26,163 bases of DNA from a virus (taxonomy: Duplodnaviria > Heunggongvirae > Uroviricota > Caudoviricetes). The DNA lies in IMG/VR virus record IMGVR_UViG_2541047960_000003, one strand, 5' to 3'. Shown here piece after piece: positions 1 through 26,163 of this stretch. Every line of letters starts with the position of its first letter. Position 1 is the stretch's first letter. The notes beneath the pieces were generated by a model, which worked only from the letters and a program-made list of their open reading frames with translations, had not been told where the DNA came from and searched no databases. Made by a program: the position numbers and the translations under genes.

Positions 1-452
1 GCCTTCGGCGTGGCAGCCTCAGTTTCTGATTGACTGTCCGTGGCGCTGCTCAGTTGTACGGTGCCTTTTGCCGTCAGTGAAGCCGCAGGCACTCCCGTTA
101 TCTGACTCCACGGGTGAGTGTGGCTGGCAGGCGCCTTGCCGGCTGCCAGGTCGTATGCAGCCTTGACCGCTTTTGGTGTGGCGGCCAGCGTTTCAGAGGT
201 GCTGTTGGTGGCACTGCTCAGTTGGGTGAACCCCTTAGCTGTCAGTGTCGCGTCCGGGTGGTTACGGGAACGTACGTGTTCAGCCAGTGACTGTGCGGCT
301 TCCTCCGTTTTCTTCTTCAGCCATTTCGTCCTGTTTGCCAGTTGCCGGGGGGCTCGATTTGATATCCCGTCTGCACCACCCAGAACCGGATCTGATGTCT
401 CCAGTTGATAGATATTTTCTTCCCACTTTTCTGTTTCATTCAGGTTTCCCAT
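1..452 (-). CDS. tail fiber protein, N-terminal part (P2 gpH-like); partial, runs off the window start
   Basis: Manual minus-strand translation from ATG at 450-452 gives MGNLNETEKWEENIYQLETSDPVLGGADGISNRAPRQL... followed by two copies of a fiber motif (TAKGFTQLSSATNSTSETLAATPKAVKAAYDLAA ... TAKGTVQLSSATDSQSETEAATPKA). Frame appeared open to position 1 in my read. Sits directly downstream of the I-like gene in P2 order V-W-J-I-H. Confidence 0.6.
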   Translation of the reverse strand, partial: MGNLNETEKWEENIYQLETSDPVLGGADGISNRAPRQLANRTKWLKKKTEEAAQSLAEHVRSRNHPDATLTAKGFTQLSSATNSTSETLAATPKAVKAAYDLAAGKAPASHTHPWSQITGVPAASLTAKGTVQLSSATDSQSETEAATPK

Positions 453-4100: not shown

Positions 4101-4303
4101 GGGGCAATATCCTCTTCTGTACGGGCTTCTTCAGCCTCAATCACCGGGATCAGTAACAACAGCCCGGAGGGCAGCACCGGCGTGATGGTCACGTGCGGAT
4201 TGGCGGCAATAATCCGGGGATAGCCCAGCGGGTCACCGTAGTACTGCCATGCCAGCGAATCCCAGCGCTCTCCGTCACGGGTAACATGTTCAAGAAACAT
4301 CAC
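4088..4303 (-). CDS. tail protein X-like (small LysM-like tail protein)
   Basis: 71-aa ORF with W..YYG...ANP motif typical of P2 gpX-like proteins; overlaps both neighbours. Confidence 0.55.
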   Translation of the reverse strand: MMFLEHVTRDGERWDSLAWQYYGDPLGYPRIIAANPHVTITPVLPSGLLLLIPVIEAEEARTEEDIAPWLR

Positions 4304-5184
4304 ACACTCCTCGTCAGTATTCTGGCGGCCATTGCACTTAATCCCGGAGACATGCGGTTGAATGCTGTGCCGGCGGCGTTAAGCTGCCCGGAAACGGTAT
4401 CCAGAGCACCTGCAATATTTCTTTTGTCCACACCACTCAGCGCAGACTGTGCCTGCTGTACATACGTGGCTGCTTCGCTGGCTGTTCTGGCCAGACTGAT
4501 GGCATCGGGCATGGATTCAGAGAGTGCGTTAAACGCCGGAACACTTTTCCCCAGAGCCCCGGAGATATTACCCAGTCCGCTCATCAGCCCCGGCACACGG
4601 GTCAGTGCGACAACGGGGTTATCCTTCATTTTCTGTGTCACCCGAACGGCGCTGATAGTGGTCTGGAGTACAGACTGCGCCTGTTTCGCATAGTTGACGC
4701 CGTTGCGGATGAACTGCGCCACCCCTGAAGGTGAAGGAATGGCACCGGAGACCGCCCCGACACCCGGGAGCTTCGTGCGTATTGCCGGTGGTTGCAGAGG
4801 ATTTTTCGGGTCACCGGTGTATTCCCGGAGAGACACGGTGGCACTGACAGCCAGCACGTTGCCGGTACTGTCAGTCTGCTCGCTGGTTGCAGTCACATCG
4901 GTAATCACGAACCAGCCGCGATAGTCACCGTTGCCGAAGACCAGCGCCAGTGCCTGATGGGCTTTCATGGCTGTTCGCAGTCTCGCCAGCTCCACATCGG
5001 GTACACAATAATGCTGATGGAAAACCAGAGTTATCTGGATTTCGTCCAGCCTGTCGCCGACGAACTGCAGGCCAGGCTTACCCCCGATGCGGGCATGCTC
5101 CGCATAATCGACGCCGAACGTGGCCTCGAAGCCGTCCCAGTAGGTAATCAGCTCAAACTCAATATCACCCAGTACGGCAAACAT
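4300..5184 (-). CDS. tail protein U-like, with long Ser/Ala-rich C-terminal extension
   Basis: 294-aa ORF directly after the tape measure gene (1-nt overlap at 5184); assigned by synteny and N-terminal domain feel. Confidence 0.5.
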   Translation of the reverse strand: MFAVLGDIEFELITYWDGFEATFGVDYAEHARIGGKPGLQFVGDRLDEIQITLVFHQHYCVPDVELARLRTAMKAHQALALVFGNGDYRGWFVITDVTATSEQTDSTGNVLAVSATVSLREYTGDPKNPLQPPAIRTKLPGVGAVSGAIPSPSGVAQFIRNGVNYAKQAQSVLQTTISAVRVTQKMKDNPVVALTRVPGLMSGLGNISGALGKSVPAFNALSESMPDAISLARTASEAATYVQQAQSALSGVDKRNIAGALDTVSGQLNAAGTAFNRMSPGLSAMAARILTRSV

Positions 5185-8135
5185 CAGCGGTACTCCTTAC
5201 GTTGTTTCTGAGCCAGCAGACGCTCCAGCATTTTTTCCAGCTCATGCAGACTCATATTCAGGGCACCAGTCAGTCCTGCAGGCGCTGTGGTTTCCCTGCC
5301 ATTGAGGAAAAACTGAGGATTAAAGCTGACCTGGATACCACCAGACGTTCCACCGCCGGTTGCAGCTGCACCACGGCCTGAATATCCGGCAGCCAGGATT
5401 TCAGGCGAGGGGATACGGGGAACATCCGGTGTCATCTCATTTGCCAGACGTTGCCCTGGTAAAATCGATGCCCGGGTGGAGAGCGGAATAGCGGGCATGG
5501 AAGACAAACTATTGATTACGGCTCCGATCGCATTTTTAGCAGACGACATAAACCCATTGATATCGGGCAACGGCATACTGAAGCGAACACCTGAAGTGTT
5601 ATCTCGTATTTCTGGCCCCTGAATGCTCACGGGCATTCTGGGGAGCAGTTCACTGGCCATTCGCTGCCCGGCCAGAGCTGCAAGCGGAGTGGTCCGCTGC
5701 AGGCCAATGGCGGCCCCCTGCGCGATATTGTCACCAAAGCCCATAAACACGCGGCTCGGCGAATGAATGCCCAGCTTTTCGCTGAACCAGCCACTGATGC
5801 TGTCACCCATTCCGGTTACACTGGATTTGAGCGACTCCCATTTGTTTTTGATACCGTTAATCAGACCATCGACAAGATGGCCACCGAAGTCGGTAAACTT
5901 TGCCGGCAGATCAACACCAAGATATTTCAGCGCAACTGCAAAGGCTTTATAGAGCAGACCTGCCGGCGACCAGTTAATCAGCAGCTTACCAGTTCCCGCG
6001 ATACCGCCGTTAAAGGCTTCCTGAATGTCAGCCCAGCACTGTTTAAACCAGCTACTGATGCTGTCACCCATTCCGGTTACACTGGATTTGAGCGACCCCC
6101 ATTTGTTTTTGATACCGTTAATCAGACCGTCGATAAGATGGCCACCGAAGTCGGTGAACTTTGCCGGCAGAGCAACGCCGAAATATTTCAGCGCAGCCGC
6201 AAAGGCTTTATAGAGCAGGCCTGCCGGCGACCAGTTAATCAGCAACTTACCAATTCCCACAATGCCGCCGTTAAAGGCTTCCTGAATGTCTGCCCAGCGC
6301 TGTTTAAACCAGCCACTGACTGCCCCCCAGTTGCGGTAGATAAGGTAAGCTGCTGCCGCGACAGCGGTGATAACGAGACCGATGGGATTCATCATCAGCG
6401 CACGTCCAATCCAGAGAACAGCACGTCCGGCGAGCATAATTCCGCGAACCAGCCCCCCGGAGAGCACGCCACTCAGTGTTCTGGCTCCTCTGGCGACGGC
6501 GCTAAATCCGGTCACCAGCCAGCGGAGCTTACCGCCTTGCCCCAGTGCGAGCGACAGACGAAGCCAGTTGGCCCGAAGTAAAACAGCATTTTTCCAGACA
6601 CTTACAAAGGGGGAAATAAGGAGATTCAGCCCCAGTTTGAGACCAACAGTCGCTATCTTAATCGCAAGGAGCGCACTGATGAGCTTAAAAGCCCCACTGA
6701 CAAATTGCGGGTGAGTCGCTACCCAGTGTTTTGCCCCCTGAATGAGTGGAAGCAGTTCCTGAGTCAAAGAAATAAAAGATGGAGCTAATTGATCGCCCAG
6801 CGTAATTGCCAGATCGCGACTGCTGACCATAAGTGTTTTAGTGGCTTCAAGGGGAGATTTCAGCCGCTGATCATAAGCACTGGCAAGCAAATCGTTATCC
6901 GCAGCCCTGAGAGCACCGGCACGGATCTCTCGATATCTGTCCATGTTGGCCAGCATCGGGCGGATAAATGCCATGACCTGCATATCCGCGAACATATCGC
7001 CCAGACCAAAGTTTTTCGCCAGAGCCTGAAGTGCCTCATCTCTTGCCGTATCATTCTTTATTTTCATGGCTGATTTGAAGCCGGCCAGCGCTTCGGGGCT
7101 TTTGGTATTGAGGTAACGTTCTATAACACTCAACATCCCTTCAATCGGAGAGATCCCCGCAGCTTTATAACTCGCAATAGATCCCTGCAAATCAATACCC
7201 AGATCAGCAAACTGTTTCTGAGTATCGCGGGCAAAAATTTTGGTAAGAAAGTTTTTAAAATTATTGGCTGCTTCGTCGGTGGAACCTGCACCGATTTTTG
7301 CTATCTGGAGACTGGCCCCGATTTCAGCAACAGCCTCTTTTCCACTGGCAATACCCGCCATCATTGGGGCCAGGGACTGCATCCACTTGACCTGATCCGG
7401 GATTTCAAATGACCCCTGGTCACCGGCATAAGCCATAATATTCTGAACGGCACCAAAATCTCTGGCCGCACCTTTCAGGGAGTTTTGCCAGACTGCGGCC
7501 ACTTTTGCCCAGTCCTGAGCAGACGTGCGTGTTGCCGTTGCCGCGCGGGCAATATCCGGCATCAGAAAACCGATATCTGACACATTATCAATATTGTCGC
7601 TGATGAGTGAACCCACCGCCTCCTGCAGCTCATCCTGATACTGATTGTATTTAAGCGCCCAGCCTTTTATCTGTCCGGCAAGTGCATCCCGCGTTTTATT
7701 GTCATATTTTGCGGTGATCGACATATCAATCATTTTGTCCTGAAAAAACATGGACTGCTGAACGGCAGGGGAAACCGTATGATAAACAGTCTGAGCCATG
7801 CCATACGCTTCAATCCCCTGACCATACAGCGCCATGCGGTTAGCTTTCAGCGCATCACTGGTAGCGGATGCCGCTGACAGACGGCGCTGCTGGCGCTCAA
7901 TTTGCTCCATGGTGCGGCTTACCCGCAGCAGCTCGCTGTTGAGATGCTGCATCCGGGAAGAACCCAGTTGACCATAACGTTCTGTTGCACGGGTTAAAGC
8001 GTTCTGACGTTCCTGCAGGCGGCGTGAGGTATCGCTCAGGGAATCAAGCGCACGGCGGGTACCGCTCATTGCAGAACGGAATGTGCTGCCAATCATCCCG
8101 CCGATAACAACGCCGACTGAAAACTGTCCCGACAT
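5184..8135 (-). CDS. tail tape measure protein
   Basis: 983-aa ORF downstream of the tail chaperone pair; coiled-coil N-terminus, Gly/Ala-rich hydrophobic central region, internal tandem repeat; canonical position. Confidence 0.85.
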   Translation of the reverse strand: MSGQFSVGVVIGGMIGSTFRSAMSGTRRALDSLSDTSRRLQERQNALTRATERYGQLGSSRMQHLNSELLRVSRTMEQIERQQRRLSAASATSDALKANRMALYGQGIEAYGMAQTVYHTVSPAVQQSMFFQDKMIDMSITAKYDNKTRDALAGQIKGWALKYNQYQDELQEAVGSLISDNIDNVSDIGFLMPDIARAATATRTSAQDWAKVAAVWQNSLKGAARDFGAVQNIMAYAGDQGSFEIPDQVKWMQSLAPMMAGIASGKEAVAEIGASLQIAKIGAGSTDEAANNFKNFLTKIFARDTQKQFADLGIDLQGSIASYKAAGISPIEGMLSVIERYLNTKSPEALAGFKSAMKIKNDTARDEALQALAKNFGLGDMFADMQVMAFIRPMLANMDRYREIRAGALRAADNDLLASAYDQRLKSPLEATKTLMVSSRDLAITLGDQLAPSFISLTQELLPLIQGAKHWVATHPQFVSGAFKLISALLAIKIATVGLKLGLNLLISPFVSVWKNAVLLRANWLRLSLALGQGGKLRWLVTGFSAVARGARTLSGVLSGGLVRGIMLAGRAVLWIGRALMMNPIGLVITAVAAAAYLIYRNWGAVSGWFKQRWADIQEAFNGGIVGIGKLLINWSPAGLLYKAFAAALKYFGVALPAKFTDFGGHLIDGLINGIKNKWGSLKSSVTGMGDSISSWFKQCWADIQEAFNGGIAGTGKLLINWSPAGLLYKAFAVALKYLGVDLPAKFTDFGGHLVDGLINGIKNKWESLKSSVTGMGDSISGWFSEKLGIHSPSRVFMGFGDNIAQGAAIGLQRTTPLAALAGQRMASELLPRMPVSIQGPEIRDNTSGVRFSMPLPDINGFMSSAKNAIGAVINSLSSMPAIPLSTRASILPGQRLANEMTPDVPRIPSPEILAAGYSGRGAAATGGGTSGGIQVSFNPQFFLNGRETTAPAGLTGALNMSLHELEKMLERLLAQKQRKEYR
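5779..6322. repeat. in-frame tandem duplication (2 x 261 bp plus ~22 bp of a third unit) inside the tape measure gene
   Basis: Unit starts at ~5779 and ~6040 (aaccagcYactgatgctgtcacccattccggttacactggatttgagcga...), begins again at ~6301 then diverges. Encodes two ~87-aa protein repeats (SWFKQRWADIQEAFNGG... / SWFKQCWADIQEAFNGG...). Also explains the near-identical antisense ORFs 5767..5952 and 6025..6213. Confidence 0.85.
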
Positions 8136-8210
8136 AGTGGTTAACCTCCGGGGAAGGTGAAAAGACGTGAGGGGATAACGCAGAACAGCCGCTACTGGCG
8201 GCTGTCTGTA

Positions 8211-8628
8211 CTATGATTTGTCGCCGTACTCGCTTTTGATTTGCTCTTCAGCCTGCTCCAGCCACATCTCCAGATCGTCAGTATCGAGGGCATCAATCTC
8301 CCCCGGCTGAAACCGGAACCATCTCGCCAGCAGCCCCTGCGCCTGCGTCAGCGCCCTGGTTGCTCTCACCCATCCCCGTGATGAGCTGAAATCGTTTCTG
8401 TAACTGCAGGTAATCAGCCAGATCCATATTGTCGAGATCTTCCGGGAGAAGACCAGTACTGCGGGCAATCAGCGGTTCGTCCCAGTCTGCCGGGTTTTTG
8501 TTGATTTTGCGCACCTGCTTCAGGTCTTTTACCGTCAGGCGTTTCAGTTCAACCAGCTCAATTCTGGTACCTGCAGCAGTGGTGAAGGGATAAGACAATT
8601 TAAAAGTATCGGATGGGGTCTGTGACAT
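8211..8628 (-). CDS. candidate frameshift-extended chaperone (E+E'-like fusion); shift site proposed at G-run 8299-8307
   Basis: Second-frame ORF 8211..8468 gives a protein-like acidic tail (...PGEIDALDTDDLEMWLEQAEEQIKSEYGDKS) ending just before the tape measure start. mRNA ...GCC GGG GGA GAU UGA has a 5-G run beside the 0-frame stop. Exact site and direction are inferred. Confidence 0.4.
8293..8628 (-). CDS. tail assembly chaperone (P2 gpE-like)
   Basis: 111-aa ORF between tail tube and tape measure; SD ACAGGAGCACAATC before ATG at 8626-8628; overlaps a second-frame ORF as expected for the frameshifted chaperone pair. Confidence 0.6.
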   Translation of the reverse strand: MSQTPSDTFKLSYPFTTAAGTRIELVELKRLTVKDLKQVRKINKNPADWDEPLIARSTGLLPEDLDNMDLADYLQLQKRFQLITGMGESNQGADAGAGAAGEMVPVSAGGD

Positions 8629-8704
8629 GATTGTGCTCCTGTGTAAGTTCAGGGCAGTATGTCGGGAGAAGCGCGTGACGGATATTAAAGGAGATTAAGA
8701 AGAA

Positions 8705-9009: not shown

Positions 9010-9531
9010 TCAGCCCCCGATATTGATACGGTAGTCAGTCAGTTGATCAACACCTCCGACCCGGAAGATGTTGGCCAGATAGTCCAGTTGCAGCAGCTCT
9101 TCACCATCCAGTACCTGTCTGATATACGTGCAGGTGAAGCTACTGGAGAACTCGGCGTTCTCGTGCTGTTTGAACGTCCCCAGCGGGTTCTTCTTGAACA
9201 TAATCGTCAGGAAGGTGACCAGCGGGATTTCGTCAATCAGCCCCTGCGAGCTGTAGCGCTGGACGCTGGAACGACACTGCAGTGCCAGCGACCTGTACGG
9301 GTTCGCGGCAGACAGCATCGCATCGCGGTAAAAGCTGTTCCATTTGATTTCGCCTTCCAGTTTGTCAAAACCAGCCGGGAGTTCCACCTTACCCACCATC
9401 CCCAGCGCCTTGTGTTCCTGCATAATCATGGAGACATCGGGGAGTTTAACTTCCTCAGCCCGTCCCAGCAGGTTAGTACCATCCAGATAGATGTTGGCAT
9501 TCGTGATGCGGTTTATCTCAATCTTTGACAT
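9010..9531 (-). CDS. tail tube protein (P2 FII-like)
   Basis: 173-aa ORF immediately after the sheath gene (start overlaps sheath stop at 9531); size and position typical. Confidence 0.75.
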   Translation of the reverse strand: MSKIEINRITNANIYLDGTNLLGRAEEVKLPDVSMIMQEHKALGMVGKVELPAGFDKLEGEIKWNSFYRDAMLSAANPYRSLALQCRSSVQRYSSQGLIDEIPLVTFLTIMFKKNPLGTFKQHENAEFSSSFTCTYIRQVLDGEELLQLDYLANIFRVGGVDQLTDYRINIGG

Positions 9532-10958
9532 CAGTTGCCCCCTTTCAGGGTTAACAGGTATTCCGAGGTGATCTCAGTCTCAAACGTCAGTCGCTCCAGC
9601 GGCGGTGGTGGCGTATATTTGTAGCTCAGCAACAGGTGCCCGGCGGCCAGCTCCGTCTCCGGATTGCGGGCCGGATCAAACCAGCAACGGAAGCCCAGTA
9701 CCGCACCATCACCAGTCATTTTGCGACCGTAGGCGTTGACCGACTCCGTCAGTGCATCAATCAGCGCCTGAGTAATCGGCATGTCGATGTACTGCTGGCT
9801 GAAATAACGAATGGACTCGTTGATCACATCACCGGTGCGGCGAACGTTCTCAAAGTTACGCATATGGGTGACCGTTGGCCATGCTGCCGTCCGGTTACCC
9901 CACAGACGAAGGCCGCTGCCGTAACTGCTGAATACCGTGGTGATCCCCTGTTCGTTAAGCAGGTTCACCTCACTCTGCGGGTCATCAATCATCGCGGACA
10001 GCTGGCGCTCCACGCCGGTGATCCCCAGAATCTCCTGATTGGAGGATGACCACCAGTAGCCCTTGTCCAGATCGACTCTGGCACGCAGACCTGCTGCACG
10101 CTGGCTGAGCGGCTCCAGACGCTCTGTGTTTGTCACCGGGTCATATACCTTCACATGCGGATAGCACAGACGGACGCGGTCGGAGCTGGTATTGAAGTTG
10201 ATGGTGCCTTCCGGGCCACGACCTGCCAGAGCCTGTGCAAAGGTGGTACCGACAGGCGCATCAATGTAGGTTACCGCGCCCAGCTTCTCTGCCATGGCGA
10301 TAAGCTCAACTGCGACACTCTTCTGGGTGCAGAACACCGGCGCAATCAGAATTTTGGCGAAATAGCCGTACAGGTTGAAGCTGTCGTTAAGCAGCTTCAT
10401 GCCGGTTCGGTTTCCGGCGCTGTTCACCCCGCCGATGATGTCCGCCGCAGTCACCTTCGACGGGTCCGCGTACTCATAGCTCACCTTCACGCTGCCACCG
10501 GCCTCAATAGCCTTGCCCAGGTTCGTGAGCACACCCGCCTGCGCATCAACACGGTAGTCCGTGTTCGCCGTGTGGGTGGTGCTGCCTTCACTGTTTTTCA
10601 CCACCACATTAGCGACAACCGGATGCGCCAGTCTGGCCTGCCCTGTCGATTTGTCAAAGGTAACCACCTCATCCTCGATCGCCGTTTTATGTTTCGCCGG
10701 GTCGAGGACGTTAATGACCAGAACGGTACCTGCACCATGGTCATAAATCGCATCCAGCGCCTGCGGAATGGTAAAGCCGGTGAACTGGCTGCCAAATGCC
10801 GCTGCGTCTTTCTCAGACAGGCACTGTACCAGCGTATTGACATCCCCCATCGGGGCGGTACCAATCAGGCCAATAACGGCAGATTTCACCGTTTTAACCG
10901 GGCGGGCACCGTTTTCCACCTCAATGGTTTCGGGACCATGCAGATAGTTAGCTGCCAT
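9531..10958 (-). CDS. contractile tail sheath protein
   Basis: 475-aa ORF upstream of the tube gene; length and position match a myovirus sheath. Confidence 0.8.
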   Translation of the reverse strand: MAANYLHGPETIEVENGARPVKTVKSAVIGLIGTAPMGDVNTLVQCLSEKDAAAFGSQFTGFTIPQALDAIYDHGAGTVLVINVLDPAKHKTAIEDEVVTFDKSTGQARLAHPVVANVVVKNSEGSTTHTANTDYRVDAQAGVLTNLGKAIEAGGSVKVSYEYADPSKVTAADIIGGVNSAGNRTGMKLLNDSFNLYGYFAKILIAPVFCTQKSVAVELIAMAEKLGAVTYIDAPVGTTFAQALAGRGPEGTINFNTSSDRVRLCYPHVKVYDPVTNTERLEPLSQRAAGLRARVDLDKGYWWSSSNQEILGITGVERQLSAMIDDPQSEVNLLNEQGITTVFSSYGSGLRLWGNRTAAWPTVTHMRNFENVRRTGDVINESIRYFSQQYIDMPITQALIDALTESVNAYGRKMTGDGAVLGFRCWFDPARNPETELAAGHLLLSYKYTPPPPLERLTFETEITSEYLLTLKGGN

Positions 10959-12458: not shown

Positions 12459-13412
12459 TTATTTACTGATACCGGTAATGAGATACCCGGCATCGCCACC
12501 AACCACGGCGACTTTGTAGATATCGGTATAACGGCAGTACTTCACCTTGCCACCGGCTCCGTCGTATTTGTCGGCAACAGGCATCCCCTTACGACGCAGG
12601 GTGTAGCCGAAGGACGGCTCGTTCTCGTCCGCGCTGTCCGCCCCCGGCTGCGGTTTGCCGACATAGTGCAGCATCAGATTGTCTCCCCAGATATCCGCCG
12701 GCACGCTGTTCTTATCCATTGCCGCTTTCATGGACGGCAGGGAGACTGGGGCACCGATGACGATCTCTTCGATCTGAAAGAGGTCCTGCAGGATTTCTGT
12801 GGTGATGCGCTTGCGTTCGTTGGCTCCGATGGCGGCCTGAATCGCCGGGTGGAACTTCAGCAGCGCCATCACGCCGGCCCCCATGGTCATCAGGTTAGGA
12901 CGCAGCCCCGTGGCCGTACGGACCGCTTCCATACCGGCTTCAATCACCCCGATGGGGTCCCCCTTACCACCGGCCCAGCGATCACTGGCTGTCAGTTTTT
13001 TGACGTGCCCGGTACGGTAGACCTTTTCATCCTGAGCCAGACGGGCAGCGATAAGTTCACGGCGCAGGTTCACGCCATTCGTGGCGCGACGGATGGCCTT
13101 GCTCTCTTCGTTAAACATGGACTCCGCCTGCTCGCGATAGTCCACCGGCGCAGCCAGATCGTGTTCACCCAGCACCAGGTCCAGCGTGCCTGTTTTTTCA
13201 CGGACCAGAACATTGCTGTCCGCCCCGACGGCACGCTCGGTGTCATATTCCACAAAGGCGGTTTTCCCGAAGGTCGGTACACGCACGCCTTCCTTGTCCG
13301 TCAGCACGACGGGGAAAATACGTTCGCCGATGAATGCGGCATTTTTATAGCCACGGGCGATACTGGTCAGTACCGGATCAACGACACGTTTACCTTTTAA
13401 GTAATCAGACAT
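12459..13412 (-). CDS. major head (capsid) protein, Mu T-like
   Basis: 317-aa ORF after the protease/scaffold gene; size and order (F-G-I-T) match the Mu head module. Confidence 0.75.
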   Translation of the reverse strand: MSDYLKGKRVVDPVLTSIARGYKNAAFIGERIFPVVLTDKEGVRVPTFGKTAFVEYDTERAVGADSNVLVREKTGTLDLVLGEHDLAAPVDYREQAESMFNEESKAIRRATNGVNLRRELIAARLAQDEKVYRTGHVKKLTASDRWAGGKGDPIGVIEAGMEAVRTATGLRPNLMTMGAGVMALLKFHPAIQAAIGANERKRITTEILQDLFQIEEIVIGAPVSLPSMKAAMDKNSVPADIWGDNLMLHYVGKPQPGADSADENEPSFGYTLRRKGMPVADKYDGAGGKVKYCRYTDIYKVAVVGGDAGYLITGISK

Positions 13413-13426
13413 GCTCTCTCCTTAAA

Positions 13427-13894
13427 TTACAGGCAGCGTGCGACAGCAGCCTCATAGCTGATGCCTTCTTTTTTGGACAGGGCCACTGCTTTCTGATGCA
13501 GGGCCAGACGCTCAGGATCGGCTTCCGCAAACTCTGCCACATCCACCTTCACCGTGTCGCCGACACGCTCTTTTGTGGCCTGTTCGGCGAAATTCATCAC
13601 CGGCTCCCCGTCGGAGAGCAATGAACGAAAGGCGGTGGCCAGCGGTGTGCGGCTTTCCCCCTCAGCAAACTCCACCGGCTTGTCGCCACCGGCGACGGCA
13701 TCCAGCAGGGCAACCACCACGGAGGAGGCGCGGGGAGCCAGACGGCCCTCTGCGACCAGTTTTTCTGCAAAGGCCACATTGTCCTTATGCAGTTGCTCCT
13801 GTCTGACCTGTGCATCACGCGCATCGCGATCAGCAGCCTGCTGCTTCAGGCGGCGGTTCTCCTCCTGAAGGGCTTCAATCTCTTCTTTTGTCAT
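13427..13894 (-). CDS. candidate nested scaffold protein (Mu Z-like) from internal in-frame start
   Basis: Internal ATG at 13892-13894 preceded by GAGGAA + 6 nt; would give a 155-aa coiled-coil product co-terminal with the I-like protein. Confidence 0.3.
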   Translation of the reverse strand: MTKEEIEALQEENRRLKQQAADRDARDAQVRQEQLHKDNVAFAEKLVAEGRLAPRASSVVVALLDAVAGGDKPVEFAEGESRTPLATAFRSLLSDGEPVMNFAEQATKERVGDTVKVDVAEFAEADPERLALHQKAVALSKKEGISYEAAVARCL

Positions 13895-25385: not shown

Positions 25386-26075
25386 ATGGGACGCACCAAA
25401 TCACCCGTTAACACTGAACTGAATGTTGAGGTTCCGCTGTCAGATAACATCAATGTCAATTTGAACGCTATGACACAGCATCGCATGGAAATTATGCAGC
25501 AGTTTGGTGATGGACTGCCTTATGAACGTGATCGCATTGTTCACGAAGCACGTTTTTATATGGCGCAGAGTGCTGAATCTATGCTGGAAGCGGGTAAGCG
25601 GCTGATCATCTTAAAAGAAAATGAGCCACACGGTGATTTTACAAACATTTTAGAAAATGAACTCGGACTTGCACCACAAGTTGCTCGCCGCATGATGCAA
25701 GCCAGTATGAAGTTTTTGGGAGAAGGTGATGAGCCAACAAAACGCTCAACGTTGAGCGTTTTGGGGAAAGCCAAACTGTACGACCTGATGGTTCTGGATA
25801 ATGAAGAACTTGATGAATTGGCCGACGGCGGCACAGTTGCCGGCCTGACGCTTGACGACGTTGATCGCATGTCAGTACGTGAATTGCGTCAGGCCCTGCG
25901 CGAAGCGCGCGAAACCAACGCAGCACAACAGCGCGTACTCGCTGACAAAAATGAAAAAATAGACTCACTCTCCACCAGACTGGAGAAGAAATCCCGTATT
26001 CAGCCGCCTGAGCCTGATGAAGAGGTTAAGAAGCTGCGGGCGGAAGTGACAGCATTAGCGGTTGAGGCGGAATGA
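25386..26075 (+). CDS. conserved early-region protein of transposable prophages (DUF3102-like by recall)
   Basis: 229-aa ORF with strong SD TAAGGAGTAATCA before ATG; charged helical C-terminus; stop overlaps a following ATG (ATGA at 26072-26075). Confidence 0.5.
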   Translation: MGRTKSPVNTELNVEVPLSDNINVNLNAMTQHRMEIMQQFGDGLPYERDRIVHEARFYMAQSAESMLEAGKRLIILKENEPHGDFTNILENELGLAPQVARRMMQASMKFLGEGDEPTKRSTLSVLGKAKLYDLMVLDNEELDELADGGTVAGLTLDDVDRMSVRELRQALREARETNAAQQRVLADKNEKIDSLSTRLEKKSRIQPPEPDEEVKKLRAEVTALAVEAE

Positions 26076-26163
26076 ACCGCCCCGGGTTTCCTGGAGAGTG
26101 TTTTATCTGTGAACTCAGGCTGCCAGATCATCGTTTCCGATGGAAGCATAATAAGCTTTTTCT

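Follow-up and report, generated by a model that had tools for sequence, protein, structure and literature searches.

That tape measure genes undergo duplication, with consequences for tail length, is textbook knowledge. In lambda, in-frame deletions and duplications in the gene for the tape measure protein gpH change tail length proportionally, by about 0.15 nm per residue (Katsura and Hendrix 1984, as cited in PMC3271669 and PMC5099701), and in TP901-1 tails became shorter step by step as repeats were deleted, at 0.145 nm per residue (Mahony et al. 2016, PMC5099701). The authors of the latter study proposed that repeats ease duplication and deletion (PMC5099701). Closely related prophages also differ by whole in-frame tape measure blocks; a pair of Bacillus prophages, for instance, has four copies of a 44-residue block where a third prophage has three (Belcaid, Bergeron and Poisson 2011, PMC3271669). 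For contractile tails, a ruler role has been shown for T4 gp29 (Abuladze et al. 1994, as cited in PMC13585406), and a 2026 survey describes myovirus tape measure proteins as typically without tandem repeats (PMC13585406). Here we analyzed a 26,163-nucleotide stretch of tailed-phage DNA (IMG/VR record IMGVR_UViG_2541047960_000003; hereafter the window), whose tape measure gene carries two consecutive copies of an 87-residue module. Given the trend in that survey, the family of this tape measure protein is an exception. Our literature search returned nothing relevant on this copy-number polymorphism or on the morphology of Escherichia phage PhiKM, the only isolated phage of the lineage. We consider it likely that the module was duplicated in frame, with a single origin, that unequal recombination later changed its copy number, and that copy number affects tail length.

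The array was recovered in the same place by three methods. Tandem Repeats Finder reported it as the sole strong array in the window, with a period of 261 nucleotides (nt), 2.0 copies, 92% matches, no indels, and a score of 937. A repeat search gave units at 5785-6045 and 6046-6306 with 93% identity, and the maximal-scoring self-match at an offset of 261 returned a 535-base-pair (bp) array of 2.05 head-to-tail copies. An adjacent 261-bp match at 93% identity is far beyond chance. An earlier note on this DNA had described an in-frame tandem duplication of a 261-bp unit at 5779-6322 with about 90% identity between copies; the three methods and the open reading frame (ORF) agree with it, with the array in a slightly shifted phase (Table 1) and a measured identity of 92.7%. 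That note also saw two 87-residue repeats followed by about 22 bp of a third copy. The two repeats stand, and the supposed third copy is a 13- to 16-nt TCAGTGGCTGGTT repeat that brackets the unit. One-copy alleles carry their single unit bracketed by the exact 13-mer TCAGTGGCTGGTT.

In codon phase, units 1 and 2 differ at 20 nt and at 9 of 87 residues. Synonymous divergence (dS) between them is 0.21 and nonsynonymous divergence (dN) is 0.046. Because the resulting dN/dS is 0.22, the substitution pattern indicates that the 87-residue unit is under purifying selection.

The identity of the gene as a tape measure gene, which the earlier note had assumed, was confirmed by profile matches and by position in the tail module. 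The 983-residue protein matches PF10145 at amino acids (aa) 159-348, with 74.9 bits against a curated cut-off of 33.2, and the PHROG tape-measure families phrog_28 (E = 4e-133) and phrog_794 (E = 3.5e-51). The annotated tape measure genes of Escherichia coli IAI39, CE10, and AR_0013 are 100% identical to the window gene, and RefSeq names the identical gene "phage tail tape measure protein." The corresponding gene of PhiKM, which is classified in Bcepmuvirus, is 96.7% identical.

The gene is widespread in E. coli, with matches in 636 of 5426 complete genomes (about 12%), including ST131, and the two-copy form occurs at 96-100% identity in complete genomes of many strains. We counted copies in two spread samples of 60 matching genomes each, drawn from the 636. 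Two copies were present in 40 and 43 genomes of the first and second sample, three copies in 11 and 11, one copy in a close relative in 3 and 1, and one copy in a divergent relative in 4 and 4, with partial or remote matches in the remaining 2 and 1; these frequencies reflect the sampling of clones such as ST131. Two copies are thus the common allele of the prophage family and no peculiarity of the window. The window gene is longer than that of single-unit relatives, but the length is not special to the window, since two copies are the majority allele of the lineage and three copies are also common.

We retrieved eleven relatives, with intact reading frames in all, and compared tape measure lengths among them, as the earlier note had suggested. 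Single-unit relatives do exist, as it supposed: MLI121 encodes 896 aa, and the proteins of IAL7250, GABEEC10, and Klebsiella phage KP12 have 821-825 aa. Two units are found in EC958 and PKF4 (983 aa) and in FDAARGOS_1252 (961 aa), and three units in A1.S1.65, 10034292-3, SCU-105, and AHB1 (1070 aa). In the more distant one-copy relatives, unit identity is 87-89%. The same lengths recur among the best 120 protein clusters (43 at 983 aa, 27 at 896 aa, and 17 at 1070 aa), and no four-unit allele was found among these 120. The sheath (WP_000729834.1) and tube (WP_162832341.1) proteins are identical between one- and three-copy prophages. The two-copy EC958 prophage has this same tube protein, and its sheath gene lies outside the retrieved stretch.

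Length also varies outside the array. The 961-aa allele of FDAARGOS_1252, which four protein clusters also show, carries a separate in-frame deletion of 22 residues (window aa 547-568); the gene thus varies in length at more than one spot. The window and its close relatives have a 71-residue segment at window 5457-5669 (aa 823-893) that the 821-825 aa proteins of IAL7250, GABEEC10, and KP12 lack. The first residues of the segment, GQRMASELLP, resemble those of the sequence right after it, GQRLANEMTP. An older duplication that has decayed could account for the segment, as could an insertion between short repeats.

The unit itself is found far beyond this lineage. A search with one unit against 1.84 billion representative proteins returned 655 clusters at E<=1e-3. 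Among 95 full-length representatives, one near-complete unit was present in 72, two in 21, three in one, and four in one. Among isolated phages, the unit was detected in 121 genomes (E<=1e-8); 118 of these, mostly myophages of Burkholderia, Ralstonia, and Pseudomonas, match below 60% identity, at about 50% among the matches listed. The unit occurs once in 120 of the 121 genomes, the sole exception being PhiKM, where parts of two units flank an assembly gap. Based on these searches, the unit is a conserved tape-measure module, multiplied repeatedly in uncultured relatives. It is not a member of the 11-residue (or 11-11-18) class of repeats marked by Trp or Phe, a membership we rejected on an autocorrelation z of only 1.0 at lag 11 in the tape measure protein (0.4 after removal of one unit). 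The Trp/Phe signal is strong at lag 87 alone (z = 5.1).

The composition of the units in other alleles points to how copy number changes. In the window, units A and B can be told apart at 19 sites. The lone unit in MLI121 reads AAAAAAAA followed by B..B, i.e., A states at sites one to eight and B states after them. In three-copy alleles the middle unit reads B..B followed by A..A, with the switch point at unit nt 54-62 in A1.S1.65 and 62-88 in AHB1, and in SCU-105 unit 2 resembles unit 1. These block-chimeric units involve at least three different crossover intervals, and many more mosaic patterns occur among the protein clusters. Because reciprocal chimeric units with differing crossover points are present in one-copy and three-copy alleles, the sequences show that unequal homologous recombination between misaligned units has taken place repeatedly, and the earlier suspicion of a recombination-prone site is well founded. 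With alleles that differ by whole units and chimeric units at the junctions, the array belongs to the class of copy-number-variable tandem repeats that unequal homologous recombination maintains.

Outside the array, MLI121 differs from the window at a dS of 0.007. This near-identity marks its single copy as a recent collapse rather than an ancestral state; the close one-copy relatives are secondary collapses and not ancestors. In the outgroups, A and B states are interleaved, as expected of a pre-duplication unit. Values of dS rise from 0.07-0.11 between two-copy lineages, through the 0.21 between units, to 0.44-0.52 between a unit and those of single-copy outgroups. By this ordering, the duplication postdates the split from single-copy relatives and predates the diversification of the two-copy lineages. 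Most likely the duplication would have arisen once, by illegitimate recombination between the bracketing 13-nt repeats, for which TCAGTGGCTGGTT is a plausible microhomology. Since then, the two roughly 93% identical 261-bp units have served as substrate for unequal homologous recombination, and repeated unequal exchange has produced the three-copy (1070 aa) and collapsed one-copy (896 aa) alleles.

The proposed consequence is a change in tail length. The tape measure protein would lie extended in the tail tube, halting polymerization of tube and sheath at its far end. Since 87 residues at 0.145-0.15 nm per residue correspond to 12.6-13.0 nm, we infer a step of about 13 nm in the contractile tail for each unit added. 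The rise per ring in contractile tails is about 4 nm, so one unit would amount to roughly three tube rings. The family would then hold natural short, medium, and long tails built of the same sheath and tube proteins. The longer tail that the earlier note predicted relative to single-unit relatives would likewise follow from findings in other phages.

An assembler that duplicated a single unit would produce an apparent array, and the repeat does disturb short-read assemblies. PhiKM has a gap of 100 Ns inside the array (PhiKM sequence 4915-5014), and in many draft assemblies the unit stands by itself as a 261-nt contig (protein clusters P0276, with 126 members, P0279, and P0295); tape measure length must therefore often be wrong or missing in short-read assemblies. 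Such trouble gives gaps or collapse, though, rather than extra diverged copies. The two copies differ at 19-20 positions with synonymous changes in excess, and the same two-copy structure is present, identical or nearly so, in hundreds of independent complete genomes, among them IAI39, CE10, and AR_0013 at 100%. On these grounds we rejected the artifact, to which we give almost no chance, in agreement with the earlier note. A different origin would have the array created, or several times re-created, by unequal exchange between two already diverged phages residing in one cell, in which case the 7% divergence between units would be no gauge of age. In favor of this, several related prophages often share a genome (as many as 9 matching places in one), the AHB1 array resembles a first unit of the SCU-105 type followed by a pair of the EC958 type, and mosaic blocks occur elsewhere in the tape measure gene. 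Nevertheless, states shared over the 3' part make orthologous units 1 and 2 recognizable in three two-copy lineages (window, EC958, and PKF4), and both units are equally far from the outgroup units. Both observations fit one duplication followed by divergence, and we find an origin between co-resident phages very unlikely.

Other explanations accept the copy number and concern its effect. The module might have a sequence-specific job, for example in forming a membrane or periplasm channel during DNA delivery or in chaperone binding. Additional copies would then alter this job, or the protein would accommodate them by packing more compactly within the tube. Its conservation across 655 clusters, its place directly after two hydrophobic segments, the dN/dS of 0.22, and its single-copy state in all module-bearing isolated phages other than PhiKM would suit such a role. 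In lambda and TP901-1, however, central in-frame changes, including those in hydrophobic regions beside the repeats, shifted tail length proportionally (PMC5099701). A main effect other than on tail length is thus unlikely in our estimation, and such a job and a ruler role are not mutually exclusive. We see as quite unlikely a further proposal, in which the module is a contingency locus: by frequent recombinational changes in copy number, from one to three, this widespread E. coli prophage family would adjust its tail length, or how far its DNA-delivery channel reaches, to the thickness of the envelope or capsule in different host lineages, and selection would preserve enough divergence between units for the array to be stably inherited.

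Several points weigh against our preferred reading of a ruler module duplicated once and later recombined. The strong sequence conservation of the unit suggests a role beyond that of a spacer. We infer the single origin and the microhomology step from patterns whose history gene conversion between the units blurs. A PDB sequence search matched no solved structure, and an AlphaFold2 prediction from a single sequence (aa 574-814) is nearly all helix at a mean predicted local distance difference test (pLDDT) score of 42, a weak hint of helicity only. The baseplate V gene (2503-2949) has a 169-nt frameshifting deletion at window 2563 relative to IAI39; its product has 148 aa versus 198, with the last 70 residues replaced and the final 20 out of frame. 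Because of this frameshift, the window's copy of the prophage may be defective and without a baseplate or tail.

Table 1. Coordinates of the tape measure gene, its repeat array, and neighboring tail genes in the window
Feature	Position	Strand	Basis or remark
Tail tape measure protein gene	5184-8135	-	983 aa, ORF without internal stop; PF10145, PHROG matches, RefSeq name
Tandem array, 261-bp unit, 2.05 copies, 92.7% identical, no indels	5785-6319	-	Tandem Repeats Finder, repeat search, self-match
Unit 1 in codon phase, aa 611-697 (KQRWADIQ...DSISSWF)	6045-6305	-	
Unit 2 in codon phase, aa 698-784 (KQCWADIQ...DSISGWF)	5784-6044	-	
13-nt direct repeat TCAGTGGCTGGTT, upstream array edge	6307-6319	-	encodes S-G-W-F
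13-nt repeat TCAGTGGCTGGTT, downstream array edge	5785-5797	-	
Internal junction of the array, carrying TCAGTAGCTGGTT	6046-6058	-	
Hydrophobic segment aa 579-600, 10 residues upstream of unit 1	6336-6401	-	Kyte-Doolittle
Second hydrophobic stretch, aa 478-508	6612-6704	-	Kyte-Doolittle
Conserved motif right after the array (SEKLGIHSPSRVFMGFGDNIAQGAAIGL)	5670-5783	-	kept in all aligned relatives
Tail assembly chaperone gene (gpE type), upstream of tape measure gene	8293-8628	-	PF10109, 74.3 bits; annotation in relatives
Tail tube protein gene (FII type)	9010-9531	-	PF04985, 180.5 bits
Contractile tail sheath protein gene	9531-10958	-	PF04984 and PF17482
gpU-type tail protein gene, directly downstream of tape measure gene	4300-5184	-	PF06995, 132.5 bits

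The surroundings of the array within the protein are given in Table 1, with hydrophobic segments taken from a Kyte-Doolittle scan (19-residue window, score >= 1.6) and the conserved LGIHSPS motif following the array. A homologue search with the flank and unit 1, meant for a deeper alignment, returned mostly short fragments. On the plus strand, an antisense ORF of 272 aa (5763-6581) spans both repeat units. No family match to this ORF exceeded the cut-off, and we treated it as spurious, probably a by-product of repeated GC-rich coding sequence. An Rfam scan of window 5000-8700 found no family present.

The tape measure gene follows the genes for sheath, tube, and gpE-type chaperone and precedes gpU, X, and D, according to family matches of the neighboring ORFs (which also include PF05954), and the RefSeq annotation at the identical locus agrees. 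The left end of the IAI39 locus is of the Mu type and includes a transposase-like gene. The window is a Mu/P2-tailed (Bcepmuvirus-like) E. coli prophage. Three genes of the IAI39 copy, namely the gp25/W-type baseplate gene, the DUF3486 gene, and a small gene that lies between those for tube and chaperone, contain internal stops and are annotated as pseudogenes in RefSeq; the tape measure gene of this copy is nonetheless intact and identical to that of the window. The last 91 bases of the window (26073-26163) give an inverted match to another part of the IAI39 locus, across the annotated boundary of an IS3-family transposase gene, which suggests an insertion sequence at the early-gene end of the prophage in the source genome. 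At the other end, window 1-224 in the tail-fiber region matches four places in the IAI39 locus at 88-98% identity, about 130-300 bp apart (reverse-complement IAI39 locus 12753-13572), pointing to internal repeats in the tail-fiber gene.

Alleles with one, two, and three copies are real but ordinary variation of a phage gene, unsurprising in kind and a well-documented example of known variation. The natural series of 896-, 983-, and 1070-aa rulers could be used to test the ruler rule, and the addition of whole tube rings, in a contractile tail of the Mu/P2 type. The array is also a spot where short-read assemblies break or collapse. Consequently, tape measure length and length-based calls of prophage "intactness" are unreliable in draft genomes.

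Among the described systems, T4 gp29 extends the principle of a ruler to a contractile tail; its sequence is unrelated to the window protein, and no natural copy-number series is known for it. TP901-1 differs in being a siphophage of Gram-positive bacteria with 11- and 18-residue repeats and engineered deletions. The mechanism established with lambda gpH is the same as that proposed for the window gene, but the lambda changes were engineered and act on a non-contractile tail, whereas the alleles of the window family are natural and belong to a prophage with a contractile tail. The blocks described by Belcaid et al. (2011) are built of 11-residue units with a Trp or Phe marker, in contrast to the 87-residue unit of the window, and yet they are gained and lost naturally, as whole in-frame blocks, just as in the window family.

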